From a phage, in sequence record PZ296772.1: a DNA stretch of 64,000 bases, one strand, 5' to 3'. Both the position numbers and the translations under genes were made by a program. Of the stretch, positions 3,660 to 58,271 are shown in pieces (positions within the stretch are counted from its first letter, which is position 1; the number at the start of each line of letters is the position of its first letter). The notes under the pieces were generated by a model. That model saw only the letters and a program-made list of their open reading frames with translations. It was not told the DNA's origin and ran no database searches.

Positions 3660-3872
3660 ATGCAGCAATTAAACGAAAGACAACTTCGTAATCTTACTGT
3701 AACCCAATTGGATGAAATCCGAAGAGAATTAGGACATTCTATTTCTCATTTAAACGAGGATATCCGTCAAACTGGTTCTAAAGCTGATTATACACGCAAG
3801 CGCAAGCTGGAAAAATACCTCGCAGATGTTAAGGCCGTCCAAAGGCGAAAAATAAATACTGGCCAAAATTAA
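3660..3872 (+). CDS. hypothetical protein
   Basis: 70-aa ORF with GAGG RBS. Confidence 0.45.
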
Positions 3873-6663: not shown

Positions 6664-7649
6664 TGAAAACAATTATGAAAGGCTACTTTGGTAGCCACCT
6701 TTATGGAACGTCTACTCCTGAATCTGACGTCGATTTTAAAGAAATTTATGTCCCTCACGCTCGTGATATCTTGACCGGTAATGTTAAAGAACACATGAGC
6801 AAGAACACGAATAACACATCATCTAAAAACACTAAAGATGATATTGACCACGAGTTGTATAGTCTCAAATATTTCTTTAAACTAGCTGCAGATGGTGAAA
6901 CCGTCGCATTAGATATGCTTCACACTCCACCAAGTCTAGTAGTTAAATCTGATTTGCCTGATGTATGGAAGTATATTCAAGATAACAGGTCTCGTTTCTA
7001 TACCACTAACATGAAATCTTATTTAGGGTACGTCCGTAAGCAAGCTTCTAAATACGGTGTCAAGGGTTCTCGTCTGGCTGTTCTCCGCCAAGCCCTTAAA
7101 CGTTCTAATGAATGGGGACAATACTTTGATAATGGTGCAGTAATTCGTTTATCACATATGAAGAATGTTCTGCCTGTAGGTGAATTTGCTTCATGGGTTG
7201 AAACTGAAAACGAGAAAACAGGTAAGCAAACATTCTATAGTCTGTTGGACCGTAAATTCCAAGATACGTTAACCAATAAAGAGTTCAATGCCATCCTGGT
7301 TAAACTTGAAGAGAACTACGGTGAACGTGCTCGTAAGGCAGAAGCCAATGAAGGTATTGATTGGAAAGCATTGAGTCATGCATGCCGTGGTGGACTTCAG
7401 CTCTTAGAAATTTACAAAACCGGCGACCTGGTTTACCCGCTTAAGGATGCTCCATTTATTCTCGATGTTAAGCTTGGTAAACATACATTTAAAACTGTAC
7501 AAGAATTCCTAGAAGATATCGTTGACCAAGTTGAACATGCGGCAGAACAAGCTGCTAAGAACGGTATGCAGCAAAAAGTAGATATGAGTTTCTGGGATGA
7601 CTTCCTTGAGCAAGTCTACTTAGAAAACCACAATTCATACTATAAATGA
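6660..7649 (+). CDS. Pol-beta-superfamily nucleotidyltransferase-like protein
   Basis: N-terminal minimal nucleotidyltransferase motif YFGSHLYGTSTPESDVDF (GS...[DE]xD). Confidence 0.5.
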   Translation: MMKTIMKGYFGSHLYGTSTPESDVDFKEIYVPHARDILTGNVKEHMSKNTNNTSSKNTKDDIDHELYSLKYFFKLAADGETVALDMLHTPPSLVVKSDLPDVWKYIQDNRSRFYTTNMKSYLGYVRKQASKYGVKGSRLAVLRQALKRSNEWGQYFDNGAVIRLSHMKNVLPVGEFASWVETENEKTGKQTFYSLLDRKFQDTLTNKEFNAILVKLEENYGERARKAEANEGIDWKALSHACRGGLQLLEIYKTGDLVYPLKDAPFILDVKLGKHTFKTVQEFLEDIVDQVEHAAEQAAKNGMQQKVDMSFWDDFLEQVYLENHNSYYK

Positions 7650-54198: not shown

Positions 54199-54876
54199 AT
54201 GAGCACTGATGTTATTATAGATTTTGAAACATTCGGCAATACATCAAAAGCGGCTGTTATTGACCTTGCGGTTATTGCATATAATTCCGACCCTGAAGTT
54301 GTTGAATCATTTGAAGAACTTGTTCAACGAGGTAAGCGAATTAAATTTAATTTAGCTTCTCAGAAAGGGAAGCGAGTTTTCGCTAAATCCACTATGAAAT
54401 GGTGGAAAGAACAATCGGCTGAAGCACGTAAAAACTTGGCTCCGTCTGAAGACGATGTCACTACGCTTGAAGGCATTAAAATCTTTTTAGACTATTGCCG
54501 AGCTAATAAAGTTGACCAATGGAAATCACAGATGTGGTGTCGTGGTATGAGCTTTGACTTCCCGATATTGGTCGATTTGATTCGTGACCTCTATCGTGAT
54601 GAAGGTGTTCCTGAACCAGAGATTGATACTGATAAATTAGAACCGGTTAAATTCTGGGCTCAACGTGATATTCGTACGGCAATCGAAGCTTACTCGTTGA
54701 CACGAGGATTAAGTATGTGTCCATTACCGATGGGTACGCTAAAAGGATTCGTTGCCCATGATAGTATTCATGATTGTGCTAAAGATATTTTGATGTTAAA
54801 ATATGCTCAGCGTTATGCGCTTGGTCTTGAAGATGTCCCTGAGAATCCTGACCCGTTAAGTGTAAAACAGCGATAA
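54199..54876 (+). CDS. dexA: exonuclease A (DnaQ-like)
   Basis: 225 aa; Exo I motif IDFETFG; T4 dexA position. Confidence 0.65.
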   Translation: MSTDVIIDFETFGNTSKAAVIDLAVIAYNSDPEVVESFEELVQRGKRIKFNLASQKGKRVFAKSTMKWWKEQSAEARKNLAPSEDDVTTLEGIKIFLDYCRANKVDQWKSQMWCRGMSFDFPILVDLIRDLYRDEGVPEPEIDTDKLEPVKFWAQRDIRTAIEAYSLTRGLSMCPLPMGTLKGFVAHDSIHDCAKDILMLKYAQRYALGLEDVPENPDPLSVKQR

Positions 54877-54882
54877 AATCAG

Positions 54883-54911
54883 TTTACAACCAAGGACGGT
54901 TGGAGTATAAT
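54883..54911 (+). promoter_or_regulatory. promoter with CAACCA-N4-CGGTTG palindrome (family member 3)
   Basis: GTTTACaaccaaggacggttggagTATAAT. Confidence 0.5.
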
Positions 54912-54941
54912 CTTTCTATCTTAACCAAACGGGAAACAATT

Positions 54942-55436
54942 ATGAATATCAATACTACGTCTACTTACATCCTGAAAGACGAAAAACAAATCAACTGGTA
55001 CGGTGCTTCAGTGCGAGCTTATGAAAAGTTTTGTGAAATTTTAGGTGCCACTCAAGGTAATAGTTTCACTATTGTTAACTTCATTAAACAAGTTGAAGGC
55101 CCTTGGTTATTCTTAGAAATTAAAAATTCATACGGTACAATTTCTACTACTGCCATCCCAAGCACCGACTTTGAACTGTTGATTGAAGAAGCACCTGTTA
55201 AAGATGGTCTCCACTTTGATATGGATATCGTTTGTATGTACGGTACTCTGATTAAGCCTATTGAGCCTACTGATTTATTGTGTAAATATGTTTCAATTCG
55301 ACGCCCATTCGATGGTCCAGTAAATGGATGGGTAACTGACCAGTGGATTGAAGATGGGGTTGAACTTCTGAACGTTGTTCATGCCGGTGATTTTAGTGTG
55401 GTTCCACGTAGTGCAGTAGTTAATATTCTAAATTAA
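54942..55436 (+). CDS. paralog-family protein 1 (shared C-terminal domain)
   Basis: Start moved to ATG; C-terminal TDQWIEDGVELLNVVHAGDFSVVP shared with 55498 and 55963. Confidence 0.5.
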   Translation: MNINTTSTYILKDEKQINWYGASVRAYEKFCEILGATQGNSFTIVNFIKQVEGPWLFLEIKNSYGTISTTAIPSTDFELLIEEAPVKDGLHFDMDIVCMYGTLIKPIEPTDLLCKYVSIRRPFDGPVNGWVTDQWIEDGVELLNVVHAGDFSVVPRSAVVNILN

Positions 55437-55438
55437 TG

Positions 55439-55468
55439 TTGTACATCCAAGGATGGATGGAGTATAAT
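55439..55468 (+). promoter_or_regulatory. promoter with degenerate CATCCA-N4-TGGATG palindrome (family member 4)
   Basis: tGTACAtccaaggatggatggagTATAAT. Confidence 0.5.
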
Positions 55469-55497
55469 GAATTCAATTTAACAAAGAGAGAAAAATT

Positions 55498-55953
55498 ATG
55501 ATTACTATTGGTGAAATTAAGCGTGTATCAACTGCATCCCGGTCTAAAGCCGCAGGTCGTCTGGTTGAAGTGGTAGGACTTCGCACAAATGGCATGGGAC
55601 GCATTAAAGAAGTTAAAGTTCGAATCATTCCTAGTTTTGGACGTCAGGATACTCAGCACGCTTACGTAAGTCCTAAATTCTTGGAAACTCCTGTGAGCGC
55701 TCATTTTGCTTCTACTGAACCTAATGCACAGTTCAAATGGGCCTTGTGTAAAGGTGTTGAATTCCAGACTGATAAAGAATTTGACTTCATCGATGAATAC
55801 GGTTATCCAAGCAAAACTGATACTATGTGTGGCTTCATTAGTGACCAATGGGTTGAAGATGGTGAAAAGTTATACAATATCGTATTCTTAGGTGACTTCC
55901 GAGTTGTTAAAGAATCTGAAATCACTCGTTATGTGTCTCCTCGTAAAGCTTAA
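55498..55953 (+). CDS. paralog-family protein 2 (possible MotB-like by position)
   Basis: 151 aa; SRSKAAGRLVEV and CGFISDQWVEDGEKLYNIVFLGDF shared with neighbour; MotB assignment is recollection only. Confidence 0.5.
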   Translation: MITIGEIKRVSTASRSKAAGRLVEVVGLRTNGMGRIKEVKVRIIPSFGRQDTQHAYVSPKFLETPVSAHFASTEPNAQFKWALCKGVEFQTDKEFDFIDEYGYPSKTDTMCGFISDQWVEDGEKLYNIVFLGDFRVVKESEITRYVSPRKA

Positions 55954-55962
55954 GGAATTATT

Positions 55963-56382
55963 ATGAATATTGTAAATCTCTCTACAGGTGATTACGTATA
56001 TGTATCTGTTGCTTCTCGCTCTAAAGTTGCCGGGAAGTTGGTTGAAGTTCTTTCTGTGAGTGATCCGGTTTTTGGTCGTAACCAAGTTAAAGTTCGTGAC
56101 GCCGATGGTAACATTGGTTACGTTAAAAGCCAATTTATTGAACCAGAAGAAAAAGCGTTCAAATGGAAACTGGGCAGATCAGTTTTAGTTGTAAAAGACT
56201 ACGAGTTCACCATTGCCGCTGCGACAGATGGAACACCGTGGACAACGAATCAAGTTGCTGGTTTTATTTCGGACCAATGGGTAGAAGATGGTGTTAAGCT
56301 TTATAACATTGTTTTCGCTGGGCAGTTCATGGTAGTTCCTGAGTTCCAAATCAAAAAATATTGTCCAGCATCTTTTGCATAA
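55963..56382 (+). CDS. paralog-family protein 3
   Basis: 139 aa; SRSKVAGKLVEV and AGFISDQWVEDGVKLYNIVFAGQF, clear tandem paralog of 55498. Confidence 0.5.
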   Translation: MNIVNLSTGDYVYVSVASRSKVAGKLVEVLSVSDPVFGRNQVKVRDADGNIGYVKSQFIEPEEKAFKWKLGRSVLVVKDYEFTIAAATDGTPWTTNQVAGFISDQWVEDGVKLYNIVFAGQFMVVPEFQIKKYCPASFA

Positions 56383-56386
56383 AGTT

Positions 56387-56415
56387 GTTTACTTCTCCTC
56401 CGGTTTTGATATTAT
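56387..56415 (+). promoter_or_regulatory. early promoter-like cassette
   Basis: GTTTAC, 17 nt, TATTAT; tctcctccggtt/aaccagaggaga near-inverted repeat. Confidence 0.45.
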
Positions 56416-56441
56416 AACCATATCAACCAGAGGAGAATAAT

Positions 56442-56966
56442 ATGTTAGTTTACCGCGTAGAACGTAGTTTTTGTACTCAACGTGAATCATTACCAGGAAT
56501 TGCTATCGAAGATGGTAAAGCCGTCAGAATTTGGGAAACCTCTTGGAATAAAGAACCTCGCTCACCATACGGTTGGTCAGGCACCGACAACTCTGAAGAA
56601 ACATGGGAGTTCCTTGATAAACATGGAATACTCTCAGGTAACTTCTACCATCATGGCGACAACTATAATGTCCCTAATCGTCCTACAGTAAATGAAGACA
56701 AACTCCTTGAACAAAATATCTTAAGATACCATAGAATTGAGCACACATTTGAATTGAACGAAGATTGGGCTCAAGGGTTCTATTTTGGATTTGAAAGTGT
56801 TGACGCGGTTTATGCATGGTTTGATGACCAGGTGGATGTTGAACTCTTGAAAGCTAAAGGATACTACATCGCTGTCTATGAAGCACCCGATTTCATCCTC
56901 GGAAGTTGTCAATTAATGTTTAGACGTTCATTGGCAGAACAAGTTGATTTTATTTTGCTAAAATGA
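56442..56966 (+). CDS. hypothetical protein
   Basis: 174 aa, RBS GAGGAG. Confidence 0.5.
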   Translation: MLVYRVERSFCTQRESLPGIAIEDGKAVRIWETSWNKEPRSPYGWSGTDNSEETWEFLDKHGILSGNFYHHGDNYNVPNRPTVNEDKLLEQNILRYHRIEHTFELNEDWAQGFYFGFESVDAVYAWFDDQVDVELLKAKGYYIAVYEAPDFILGSCQLMFRRSLAEQVDFILLK

Positions 56967-57023: not shown

Positions 57024-57251
57024 ATGAAACGTCAAATCATTAAAAACGTAACTACTGATTCAAACATCGATGAGTTTGAAGATGTTCTGTTTAATCCTGA
57101 TTTAGTTGTTGTACAGAAAAACTGGACCGAATTTTTATGCTACACCGAAGTGGTTTACGTTTACGAAAAACTCGGCGATGAAATGCCTATCTATGGTATC
57201 TTCCGTGAAATCACTGAAAATGGTACAACTTATTGGAAGGAAACTTACTAA
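57024..57251 (+). CDS. hypothetical protein
   Basis: Start moved to ATG after AGAGGAGAA; 75 aa. Confidence 0.4.
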
Positions 57252-57661
57252 TGGCTAATAAATTCCGCGTTAACTCATGGTACCAATTTATAGATAAACG
57301 TGCCCAAGAAGAGTTTATTAAAGACCACACTGATAATGGGATTTATGCACGACGTCTTGGCATGGAACCATTTAAAGTATTAGATGTTGACCATCTCGGA
57401 CGTCCTACTAAAATTTTAACATCTACTGGCACGGTTGGATACGCAACAGGCGGTGATATCCTTGATGAAAACTTTATCTGGCTCTCCACGAATGAAGCAG
57501 AGTTCTTTGACGAAGTTGAAAATCCATATCAAGCGTCCGAAGAGCAAGATTCTGGTGAACTTGGCGAATTGTCTGAATTTCCTGTGATGACGATTACTAT
57601 CGAAAATAATGACCAGGCATGGTCTTTGTATCAAATGTTGAAAGCACATTTTAAGGAATAA
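57251..57661 (+). CDS. hypothetical protein
   Basis: Start moved to internal ATG overlapping upstream stop; 136 aa. Confidence 0.4.
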
Positions 57662-57845: not shown

Positions 57846-58271
57846 ATGGCTTTTAAAGGTTTTGAAGTTGGTAAGAAATATCGTATTATCAAAGGACAGG
57901 AAGATAATTTCTTGAGAATTCTTAATACGACTGGTAAACGTCTTAATACTAATCTGCATACTACTTTATTGACCAAAGATTTTATTGTGGAAGAGATGAT
58001 TGGTTACGGCGTTTCGGTTATTGCCGTAGAAGCCGTAGGCGATTATGGGCGAACTATTCATAGTATGCAAGGTGATATTCTGCTTTATGGTGCAGAATTT
58101 AAATTCTTTGAAGAAGTTCCGGAACCAGATACAGCTGTCGATTTCAAAAAAGGCTCTATAGAATTTGTTGATGGTTCGGTGATCGTATCAGGCGATGTGG
58201 TCATTACAGTTAAAAGTGAACAAGGGCGTTTGGCTGCAATTGATACACTTCAGAAAATTAAATTTAAATAA
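57846..58271 (+). CDS. hypothetical protein
   Basis: 141 aa, followed by a terminator. Confidence 0.45.
   Translation: MAFKGFEVGKKYRIIKGQEDNFLRILNTTGKRLNTNLHTTLLTKDFIVEEMIGYGVSVIAVEAVGDYGRTIHSMQGDILLYGAEFKFFEEVPEPDTAVDFKKGSIEFVDGSVIVSGDVVITVKSEQGRLAAIDTLQKIKFK

Follow-up and report, generated by a model that had tools for sequence, protein, structure and literature searches.

The closest described relatives of the genes studied here are MotB and MotB.1 of phage T4, which are encoded in the order dexA-motB.2-motB.1-motB-cef. According to two reports (PMC6070864, PMC7827196), T4 MotB binds DNA tightly and independently of sequence, co-purifies with H-NS and StpA, is toxic when overexpressed, has a 2-fold effect on burst size, changes the H-NS footprint and de-represses genes of the H-NS regulon. 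Patterson-West et al. 2021 (PMC7827196) described a C-terminal domain (CTD) shared by MotB and MotB.1 and the presence of two motB genes plus one motB.1 in RB69; in that work, HHpred put the MotB CTD in the OB fold, and either domain was left as the possible DNA binder. Kim et al. 2025 assigned the N-terminal domain (NTD) of MotB.1 to an LSm-like fold, a bent five-stranded antiparallel sheet common to GoF and Frd.2, and observed no phenotype upon deletion of T4 motB.1. With the CTD and the extra RB69 motB copy known since 2021 and the MotB.1 head fold since 2025, the relationship between these genes is already published, and finding it again is ordinary. Added here are the purifying selection, the charge gradient, the size of the family, and insertions within motB.1 in reference records.

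The DNA analyzed, a stretch of 64,000 nucleotides from phage sequence record PZ296772.1 (the window), belongs to a Mosigvirus, an RB69-type, T4-like phage, and its locus is 99.5% identical in DNA to phage pEK20. The gene order dda-dexA-ORF1-ORF2-ORF3-ORF4-cef-goF-39.2-ORF-gp39 is the same in JS09 (96.8% DNA identity to the window at the locus) and in RB69, which is likewise close, and is comparable in T4, except that the motB.2 homologue lies on the opposite side in the window. The MotB clusters of RB69 (RB69p010-p013) and JS09 (JS09_0168-0170) have the same gene content and order, motB.1, motB, MotB-like, and motB.2, so that the window is another ordinary member of the genus at this cluster. 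ORF1, ORF2, and ORF3 belong to the MotB family and are located in the dexA-cef early region of the Tevenvirinae. The original prediction, made from the sequence alone, had placed three consecutive ORFs just downstream of dexA, and had proposed that one of them might be MotB, which maps near here in T4. All of this was borne out: the three ORFs are present (Table 1), the upstream landmark dexA, itself outside the MotB family, is recognized by Pfam, PHROG, and the DexA annotation in JS09 and RB69, and ORF2 is MotB. We consider it probable that the locus is the Mosigvirus MotB cluster, comprising three early genes whose products have a small conserved C-terminal β-barrel in common and fulfil the roles proposed below.

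Table 1 Features of the MotB cluster in the window. Domain boundaries are given in residues of the respective product.
Feature	Position	Strand	Description	Basis
dexA	54199..54876	+	exonuclease A	Pfam Rv2179c-like E 4e-20; PHROG 255 exonuclease E 9e-82
Promoter-like site before ORF1	54883..54911	+	T4-early-type sigma-70, TTTACA-17-TATAAT, 11/12	consensus match only
ORF1	54942..55436	+	MotB.1 homologue, 164 aa from ATG, net charge -9, pI 4.6	phrog_2333 E 3.5e-81
ORF1 NTD	54942-55196	+	residues 1-85, predicted LSm-like/SH3-topology	AF2 model; Kim et al. 2025 for fold
ORF1 linker			residues 86-107, low-confidence, carries FDMDxxxMYGTLxKP motif	AF2 model
ORF1 CTD	55263-55433	+	residues 108-164, shared domain	
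Promoter-like site before ORF2	55440..55468	+	early type, TGTACA-17-TATAAT, 10/12	
ORF2	55498..55953	+	MotB orthologue, 151 aa, pI 8.5, net charge +2	annotated MotB in RB69, JS09
ORF2 NTD	55498-55686	+	residues 1-63, basic, KOW/SH3-like, N-terminal part net +6	
ORF2 linker			residues 67-76, disordered	
ORF2 CTD	55729-55950	+	residues 78-151, net -4	
ORF3	55963..56382	+	second MotB-like paralogue, of the Mosigvirus type, 139 aa, net charge 0	43% identical to ORF2
ORF3 NTD	55963-56142	+	residues 1-60, followed by short linker	
ORF3 CTD	56155-56379	+	residues 65-139	
Promoter-like site before ORF4	56388..56415	+	early type, TTTACT-16-TATTAT, with TG	
ORF4	56442..56966	+	motB.2 homologue, 174 aa	phrog_1106 E 1.9e-45; annotated motB.2 in RB69, JS09

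Pairwise BLASTP comparisons yielded significant similarity for all three pairs, far above chance. ORF2 and ORF3 are identical at 62 of 145 positions (E 2e-29) in an alignment that spans both the N-terminal block SRSK(A/V)AG(R/K)LVEV, which had been predicted for these two, and the C-terminal block predicted for all three. ORF1 matches ORF3 with an E-value of 3e-11 (18/29 identical over GW/FxxDQWxEDGxxLxNxVxxGxFxVVP) and ORF2 with one of 4e-10, and its likeness to both is confined to the final ~57 residues. At the DNA level, a 21-mer coding for DQWxEDG is present in all three genes (at 55337, 55842, and 56271), and a 48-mer coding for SRSK is common to ORF2 and ORF3. The three products all exceed the gathering score of 25 bits of Pfam motB (PF17613): ORF2 with 124.7 bits (E 4e-36, profile positions 2-157), ORF3 with 81.8 bits (E 6.6e-23), and ORF1 with 34.6 bits, the last over profile positions 82-153 only, which is the C-terminal part. 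They also match PHROG 1671, 'MotB-like', with E-values of 1.7e-63, 1.3e-50, and 7.6e-15, respectively. The core motif of the CTD, a domain of about 57-75 residues, is G[WFY][VI][TS]DQW[VI]EDGxxLxN[VI]VxxGxFxV[VI]P. In the alignment and the AF2 model, ORF2 and ORF3 combine it with a KOW-like head bearing the motif (V/I)SxxSRSKxAG; ORF1 does not, its head being a different, alpha/beta-decorated barrel, which makes it a MotB.1-type relative and not MotB proper. Simple triplication in tandem of a single small gene, as originally proposed, does not explain the locus: duplication stands for ORF2 and ORF3, which are whole-gene duplicates, and fails for ORF1, which has an unrelated, predicted LSm-like head joined to the shared CTD, indicating an origin by domain recombination.

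The wider family fits this picture. Among 1.84 billion representatives, it forms 32 clusters, its CTD-bearing proteins have at least four head architectures, and the CTD is 70-88% identical between genera even where the heads differ. In an exhaustive profile search, all distant relatives paired a KOW-like head with the MotB CTD, which suggests that this is the ancestral layout and that ORF1 is a head-swap derivative, in which the CTD and the linker motif were retained and the KOW-like head was exchanged for an LSm-like barrel. A comparison of copy number across phages identified the second copy, of the ORF3 type, in about 208 of the 774 phage records with the MotB family.

T4-type MotB aligns over its full length with ORF2 and ORF3 at about 38-56% identity, has the same two-domain layout, and like them is located between dexA and cef. 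ORF2 shares the basic N-terminal barrel with T4 MotB; it is shorter (151 versus 162 residues) and less basic (+2 versus +6), and its CTD is acidic. By homology with T4 MotB, ORF2 most probably coats DNA early in infection irrespective of sequence, repositions the host nucleoid protein H-NS on DNA and thereby brings a modest gain in burst size, a function transferred from a protein ~40-50% identical, the biochemistry being that of the T4 protein only. The original prediction had called MotB a transcription modifier. That name is historical: in the two T4 reports (PMC6070864, PMC7827196), motB knockdown does not significantly change T4 transcripts, and MotB interacts functionally with H-NS.

ORF3 has no counterpart in the T4 cluster, from whose MotB it differs in its short linker and zero net charge. 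It begins 9 nt past the ORF2 stop, and that TAA overlaps its Shine-Dalgarno sequence, AAGGA. Orthologues with at least 80% identity are found in 208 phage records, 139 residues in length, each of which has a second, MotB place as well. ORF3 is interpreted as an ancient copy of the entire ORF2 gene that has stayed intact in the RB69-like lineage; as its net positive charge has been lost, a divergent function is probable.

Over 98% of its length, ORF1 shares 44-51% identity with T4-type MotB.1 clusters (P0052-P0076), 46-47% with the intact, full-length T4-type protein, and 46.3% with MotB.1 of the T4 record OL964745. T4 MotB.1 has the same head-plus-CTD order and the same position in the motB cluster; its intact form has 143-145 residues, and ORF1 differs from it by an extra 22-residue linker segment (HFDMDIVCMYGTLIKPI), which is absent from T4 MotB.1 and is also found in KOW-headed relatives. 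In the AF2 model of ORF1 (pLDDT 78 overall), residues 1-85 form five strands and two helices with a pLDDT of ~76-86. Since ORF1 is strongly acidic, it is not expected to be a generic DNA coater, and since deletion of T4 motB.1 has no phenotype, ORF1 may contribute only under certain conditions or, in the laboratory, not at all. We also considered ORF1 and ORF3 as pseudogenes or decaying duplicates and rejected this, as both are intact ORFs with low dN/dS and lengths conserved in about 208 and 308 records.

The predicted fold of these proteins is a tandem of SH3-like barrels. The CTD does not conform to the cold-shock, DNA-binding type of OB fold, a five-strand barrel in which a helix separates the third strand from the fourth and whose nearest structural neighbors are OB-fold proteins. 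Its resemblance to SH3-like small β-barrels (NusG/Spt5 KOW, Tudor, PWWP, chromo, and the tandem Tudor of 53BP1) is at the level of fold and does not extend to sequence: Pfam searches for KOW or Tudor returned no match at E<=0.1 for ORF1, ORF2, or ORF3, and the MotB profile had no match among PDB sequences at E<=1. The net charge decreases from ORF2 with its basic NTD through ORF3 to ORF1, so that only ORF2 looks like a DNA-coating MotB, and MotB.1-type CTDs have a median net charge of -3 (118 proteins). From this we infer that ORF2 binds DNA mostly through its basic N-terminal barrel and that the shared CTD barrel is a common protein-contact or oligomerization module, not a DNA-binding surface, although the CTD of T4 MotB is mildly basic (net +2), so that the exclusion of the CTD from DNA binding is not uniformly valid. 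Together, the predicted fold and the charge differences offer a concrete, testable assignment of DNA binding and protein contact to separate domains. A more specific and speculative proposal, which we regard as having a small chance of being correct, is that the CTD does not bind DNA and is instead a Tudor-like docking or oligomerization module, by which a variety of nucleic-acid-binding heads reach a single shared partner. If so, the heads would be basic and KOW-like in MotB, neutral in the MotB-like copy, and LSm-like in MotB.1, and the proteins might either partner one another, as DNA-bridging mixed oligomers, or contact a host nucleoid or transcription protein such as H-NS/StpA.

The charges also bear on the improbable alternative that the three products are interchangeable, non-specific DNA-coating and nucleoid-compacting proteins whose duplication raises early MotB activity. 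The conserved CTD, the Pfam motB score of all three, the adjacency and apparently early nature of the genes, and the DNA-binding CTD left open in 2021 (PMC7827196) are in line with such redundant dosage. Set against it, the charges differ sharply (+2 with a +6 head in ORF2, 0 in ORF3, and -9 with a pI of 4.6 in ORF1), an acidic protein would be a poor non-specific DNA coater, the head of ORF1 differs, and ORF2 and ORF3, which are only 43% identical although purifying selection maintains each of them in about 208 genomes, display the pattern of diverged copies.

Estimated from four genomes only, dN/dS was 0.27 for ORF1, 0.19 for ORF2, and 0.15 for ORF3; the CTDs alone gave 0.03-0.11. Purifying selection therefore acts on each of the three genes, and, contrary to what had been predicted from the apparent local duplication, they are not fast-evolving. 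At synonymous sites, ORF2 and ORF3 have diverged 3-11 times as much as the flanking genes, and metagenomic chimeras exist between ORF2 and ORF3 and between T4 MotB and ORF3; the locally high synonymous divergence points to the exchange of old alleles rather than positive selection. These data weigh on the idea, which we rate below redundant dosage, that the paralogues serve host interaction or counter-defense and diversify rapidly, with positive selection driving their duplication and divergence. Such an arms race would suit a dispensable, rearranged early region whose order is unlike that of T4, with lineage-dependent copy number, the several head architectures on one CTD, the raised synonymous divergence, and the chimeras. 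It agrees poorly with dN/dS values that stay well under 1 (0.03-0.27) for all genes and domains and with the conservation of the CTD across genera, a diversity that resembles shuffled conserved modules and not fast amino-acid change; no link to defense or anti-defense was found in searches that left out the PADLOC library.

For the kinship of the ORF1 head with GoF we rely on Kim et al. 2025, our own support consisting of PHROG cross-matches and a weak match to a GoF model in a BFVD structure search (rank 50, E 0.04). The ORF at 57846-58271 cross-matches phrog_2333 weakly (E 0.0014) and matches GoF by BLASTP with an E-value of 0.027. Least probable of all is that ORF1 acts through its LSm-like head as an RNA chaperone or RNA-stability factor with the MotB-type CTD as a leftover without a shared role, as might be supposed from the fold shared with Frd.2 and GoF, whose D25Y variant stabilizes gene 41 mRNA, and from the BFVD match: Kim et al. 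observed no strong post-transcriptional effect of MotB.1 (apparently the 119-residue form), hhalign comparisons of the ORF1 family alignment with the window's GoF (57251-57661) and with the ORF at 57846-58271 were not significant (probabilities of 1.9% and 0.6%), and constraint within ORF1 is strongest on the CTD (dN/dS 0.03 versus 0.22 for the NTD), which is hence not a relic.

The short MotB.1 form comes from the T4 reference sequence (NC_000866.4/AF158101.6), in which an extra G, found in 1 of 15 T4-type records, falls inside the conserved domain and truncates MotB.1 to 119 residues. Constructs built on that annotation lack half of the conserved domain; this apparently applies to the assays of Kim et al. 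2025. Should the docking proposal be correct, published negative results on T4 MotB.1 may be uninformative, since the 119-residue form is without barrel strands 3-5. In the RB69 reference, two single-base insertions split motB.1 into ORFs of 132 and 29 residues, in contrast to the window, JS09, NHEP11, and SHSML-52-1, where motB.1 is one intact ORF of 164 residues. What has been reported from RB69 as a '29-aa peptide' class corresponds to the frameshifted tail of motB.1 in the reference record and not to a separate gene. A programmed frameshift behind the short T4 and RB69 forms was rejected, because the extra bases are missing from all remaining T4 records and from four further Mosigviruses. 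Together with the domain assignment above, these corrections are of modest practical value for work on T4 early 'host-takeover' proteins.

The promoter-like site before ORF1 is part of a 52-nt block that is repeated upstream of ORF2 with 73% identity, and a longer, TTG-initiated reading of ORF1 would begin at 54900, upstream of the -10 hexamer of this predicted promoter. A consensus scan detected no promoter-like site directly before ORF3, which makes co-transcription with ORF2 probable, and no terminators were predicted between genes within 54900-56966. We infer that ORF1, ORF2, and ORF3 would all be expressed from the predicted early promoters, noting that the consensus matches in the region (16, versus 13.1 expected from shuffled sequence) are not above chance in total. 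ORF4, despite its name, lies outside the MotB family, and a Pfam search with it returned no match; by eye, it and T4 motB.2 look alike.

The three open reading frames named in the original prediction as a tandem paralogous triplet lie immediately after dexA on the + strand (ORF1, ORF2 and ORF3 in the table below). Pairwise comparison found significant similarity among them, but the claimed paralogy of all three stands end to end only for ORF2 and ORF3 (62/145 identical, E 2e-29). ORF1 matches these two through a C-terminal block alone (E 3e-11 and 4e-10), so its paralogy extends over the last ~57 residues, here called the C-terminal domain (CTD). At the DNA level, a 21-mer coding for DQWxEDG is repeated in all three genes and a 48-mer coding for SRSKxAG in ORF2 and ORF3.

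Features of the motB region in the window, with properties of the encoded proteins and reference loci (dN/dS from four Mosigviruses; promoter-like sites are consensus matches of the T4 early type)
Feature	Coordinates	Strand	Length (aa)	Net charge	pI	dN/dS, whole gene	dN/dS, CTD	Description
dexA	54199-54876	+						Pfam Rv2179c-like exonuclease; PHROG exonuclease; DexA annotation in related genomes
Early-promoter-like site before ORF1	54883-54911	+						11/12 consensus
52-nt repeat, first copy	54885-54936							upstream of ORF1
ORF1	54942-55436	+	164	-9	4.6	0.27	0.03	
Early-promoter-like site before ORF2	55440-55468	+						10/12 consensus
52-nt repeat, second copy	55442-55493							upstream of ORF2
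ORF2	55498-55953	+	151	+2 (N-terminal part +6, CTD -4)	8.5	0.19	0.08	
ORF3	55963-56382	+	139	0	6.3	0.15	0.11	
Early-promoter-like site before ORF4	56388-56415	+						9/12 with TG
ORF4	56442-56966							phrog_1106
GoF	57251-57661							phrog_622, E 9e-39
RB69ORF005c-like ORF	57846-58271							phrog_622, E 1e-21
T4 MotB				+6	9.2			
RB69 motB.1 and RB69p012	NC_004928.1 8376-8872 (RB69 locus L004 3877-4373)							split by insertions

This 2.9-kb part of the window shares 99.5% identity with Escherichia phages vB_EcoM-pEK20 and 172859UKE1; for JS09, a Mosigvirus (RB69-like, Tevenvirinae), the figure is 96.8%. In JS09 and RB69 the four genes are annotated as motB.1 (ORF1), MotB (ORF2), MotB-like (ORF3) and motB.2 (ORF4). 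With the gathering score of Pfam motB (PF17613) as membership cut-off, ORF2 (124.7 bits), ORF3 (81.8 bits) and ORF1 (34.6 bits, via its C-terminal part only) all belong to the family, and the whole of ORF1 falls in phrog_2333. We consider these identities close to certain, and the suggestion that one member is MotB was correct. The trio is real and correctly placed, in a gene family already described and a phage type already sequenced.

In the window the genes run srd, dda.1, dda, dexA, ORF1, ORF2, ORF3, ORF4, cef, goF, 39.2, the RB69ORF005c-like ORF and gene 39. In T4 it is dexA, motB.2, motB.1, motB, cef; T4 therefore has a single MotB, with motB.2 on the opposite side of the cluster. The motB.2 homologue follows the MotB genes in the window but lies between dexA and motB.1 in T4, and the cluster has been rearranged between genera. 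ORF4 has no Pfam hit and is unrelated to MotB despite its name. GoF and the RB69ORF005c-like ORF both match phrog_622 and so look like a second paralogue pair in the same early region; in T4, the second position is occupied by the unrelated short gene 39.1. The ORF at 57846-58271 also weakly matches the PHROG of ORF1 (E 0.0014), and direct pairwise and profile comparisons of the GoF and 57846-58271 relations gave no significance.

The paralogy of the trio is already known from the literature. Patterson-West et al. (2021, PMC7827196) describe MotB as a KOW-like N-terminal domain plus a CTD shared with MotB.1, whose N-terminal domain differs, and report further N-terminal types joined to the same CTD in other proteins; for RB69 they list two motB genes, one motB.1 and a 29-aa peptide. 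According to Kim et al. (2025, PMC12152347), the MotB.1 N-terminal domain, GoF and Frd.2 form one LSm-like/SH3-topology family, and deletion of T4 motB.1 leaves burst size and latent period unaffected. T4 MotB is a tight, sequence-independent DNA binder that co-purifies with H-NS and StpA (PMC6070864, PMC7827196). It raises burst size twofold, alters the footprint of H-NS and relieves repression of part of the H-NS regulon. T4 transcripts scarcely change.

A tblastn search with ORF3 detected the MotB family in 774 phage records. An ORF3 orthologue of at least 80% identity was present in 208, and all of these that appear among the rows listed have a second place as well; the remaining 566 gave only matches below 60%, corresponding to a single MotB, and none fell between 60 and 80%. 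The ORF2/ORF3 duplication is thus old and a hallmark of RB69-like phages. ORF1 matched 740 records. In 308 the match spans at least 80% of the query; in the rest, the matches listed cover residues ~103-164 only (70-88% identity). In the protein search, the MotB.1-type CTD was carried on heads varying in length and number (proteins of 143-145, 164-169, 178-183 and 241-252 aa), sometimes on a KOW-like head (P0121 and P0125). An exhaustive CTD profile search returned only 32 clusters at E<=1e-3 among 1.84 billion cluster representatives. The remoter ones all combine a KOW-like head with the CTD, often with the xDxDVxxMYxTP linker motif, as in ORF1. We infer that the KOW-head plus C-terminal barrel was the ancestral form, from which ORF1 arose by a head swap.

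The AlphaFold2 model of ORF2 (mean pLDDT 84) contains two beta domains (residues 7-63 and 86-145; C-terminal blocks at pLDDT 91-94). In that of ORF1 (mean pLDDT 78), an alpha/beta-decorated five-stranded head spans residues 8-83 and a C-terminal barrel residues 116-163 (pLDDT 86-92); between them, residues 86-105 form a linker of low confidence. Each barrel consists of four strands, a short helix and a fifth strand, and the lack of a helix between strands 3 and 4 argues for reading MotB as a tandem pair of SH3-like (KOW/Tudor-type) barrels. The shared CTD is likewise read as an SH3-like barrel, not the OB fold suggested from HHpred. At the sequence level, no similarity was found to KOW or Tudor families (Pfam, E<=0.1) or to a solved structure (PDB, E<=1). 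The interdomain linker of ORF2, which the model predicts as disordered (residues 67-76), varies in length; NHEP11 (locus L005) carries a 42-nt in-frame insertion there (columns 1522-1563 of the four-Mosigvirus alignment A7, window ~55717/55718).

The paralogues are set apart by net charge, and the MotB.1-type CTD has a median net charge of -3 (n=118 proteins). On our best reading, ORF2 does the job of T4 MotB: it would coat DNA early in infection and remodel the nucleoid, acting on H-NS-bound DNA. Its basic N-terminal barrel would provide the main DNA-binding surface, and the invariant, often acidic C-terminal barrel would more likely be a common protein-contact or self-association module. Function has probably diverged in ORF3 and in ORF1, which would join the C-terminal module to an LSm-like head. 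We give this assignment of functions to domains roughly even chances; it is weakened because the CTD of T4 MotB itself is mildly basic.

Local duplication and divergence had also been called typical of fast-evolving genes; the substitution data do not bear out fast evolution here. In the window, JS09, NHEP11 and SHSML-52-1, four Mosigviruses whose genes are intact (alignment A7), a simple Nei-Gojobori count on this small sample gave dN/dS of 0.15-0.27 for whole genes and 0.03-0.11 for the CTD, the most constrained part of each gene. All three are therefore kept by purifying selection. Synonymous divergence is far higher in ORF2 (0.33) and ORF3 (0.47) than in dexA (0.04) or ORF4 (0.11), and 55498-56382 forms an island of old allelic diversity between nearly identical flanks (54199-54876 and 56442-56966). 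Three clean metagenomic chimeras combine an ORF2 head with ORF3 middle and tail (P0028), ORF2 head and middle with an ORF3 tail (P0031), and a T4 MotB head with an ORF3 tail (P0029). They suggest natural recombination or deletion between tandem paralogues or alleles, the alternative being assembly chimeras. Together, the divergence and the chimeras speak for an exchange of old alleles and for recombination between paralogues rather than for fast amino-acid change.

The 52-nt block repeated upstream of ORF1 and ORF2 (73% identity) holds the early-promoter-like -35/-10 elements and leader, and could serve as a substrate for modular shuffling in the region. The consensus scan found no promoter-like site of the T4 early type for ORF3, which is therefore likely to be transcribed together with ORF2; its start lies 9 nt beyond the ORF2 stop codon, and that codon overlaps its AAGGA ribosome-binding site. 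No terminator-like sites were predicted inside the cluster.

Comparison with reference records revealed frameshifts in motB.1. The T4 reference (NC_000866.4 = AF158101.6) reads GGATTGGAAGATGG where MT984581, the record aligned, reads GGATTGAAGATGG; in 13 other T4, T4T, RB55 and RB59 records the same stretch is one base shorter than in the reference. The extra G (about 7304-7305 of NC_000866.4, positions 3805-3806 of T4 locus L002; ATTGGAAGATGG versus ATTGAAGATGG) stops the reference MotB.1 at 119 aa (…DQWIGRWR*), inside the conserved C-terminal barrel. Without it, MotB.1 of MT984581 has 143 aa, ending …DQWIEDGVELLNVVHAGEYSVVPRSAVVAILN, and this intact form is a widespread cluster (P0059, 256 contigs). 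The 13.8-kDa MotB.1 of Kim et al. matches the truncated annotation, and the published MotB.1 experiments appear to have used that form. Compared with the window, JS09, NHEP11 and SHSML-52-1, the RB69 reference carries two single-base insertions, and these break motB.1 into two ORFs, one of 132 aa ending …RRPFRRSSEWMGN* and one of 29 aa, LKTVVELLNVVHAGDFSVVPRSAVVNILN. The 29-aa 'Category 3' peptide of RB69 (Patterson-West et al. 2021, PMC7827196) is the frameshifted tail of motB.1.
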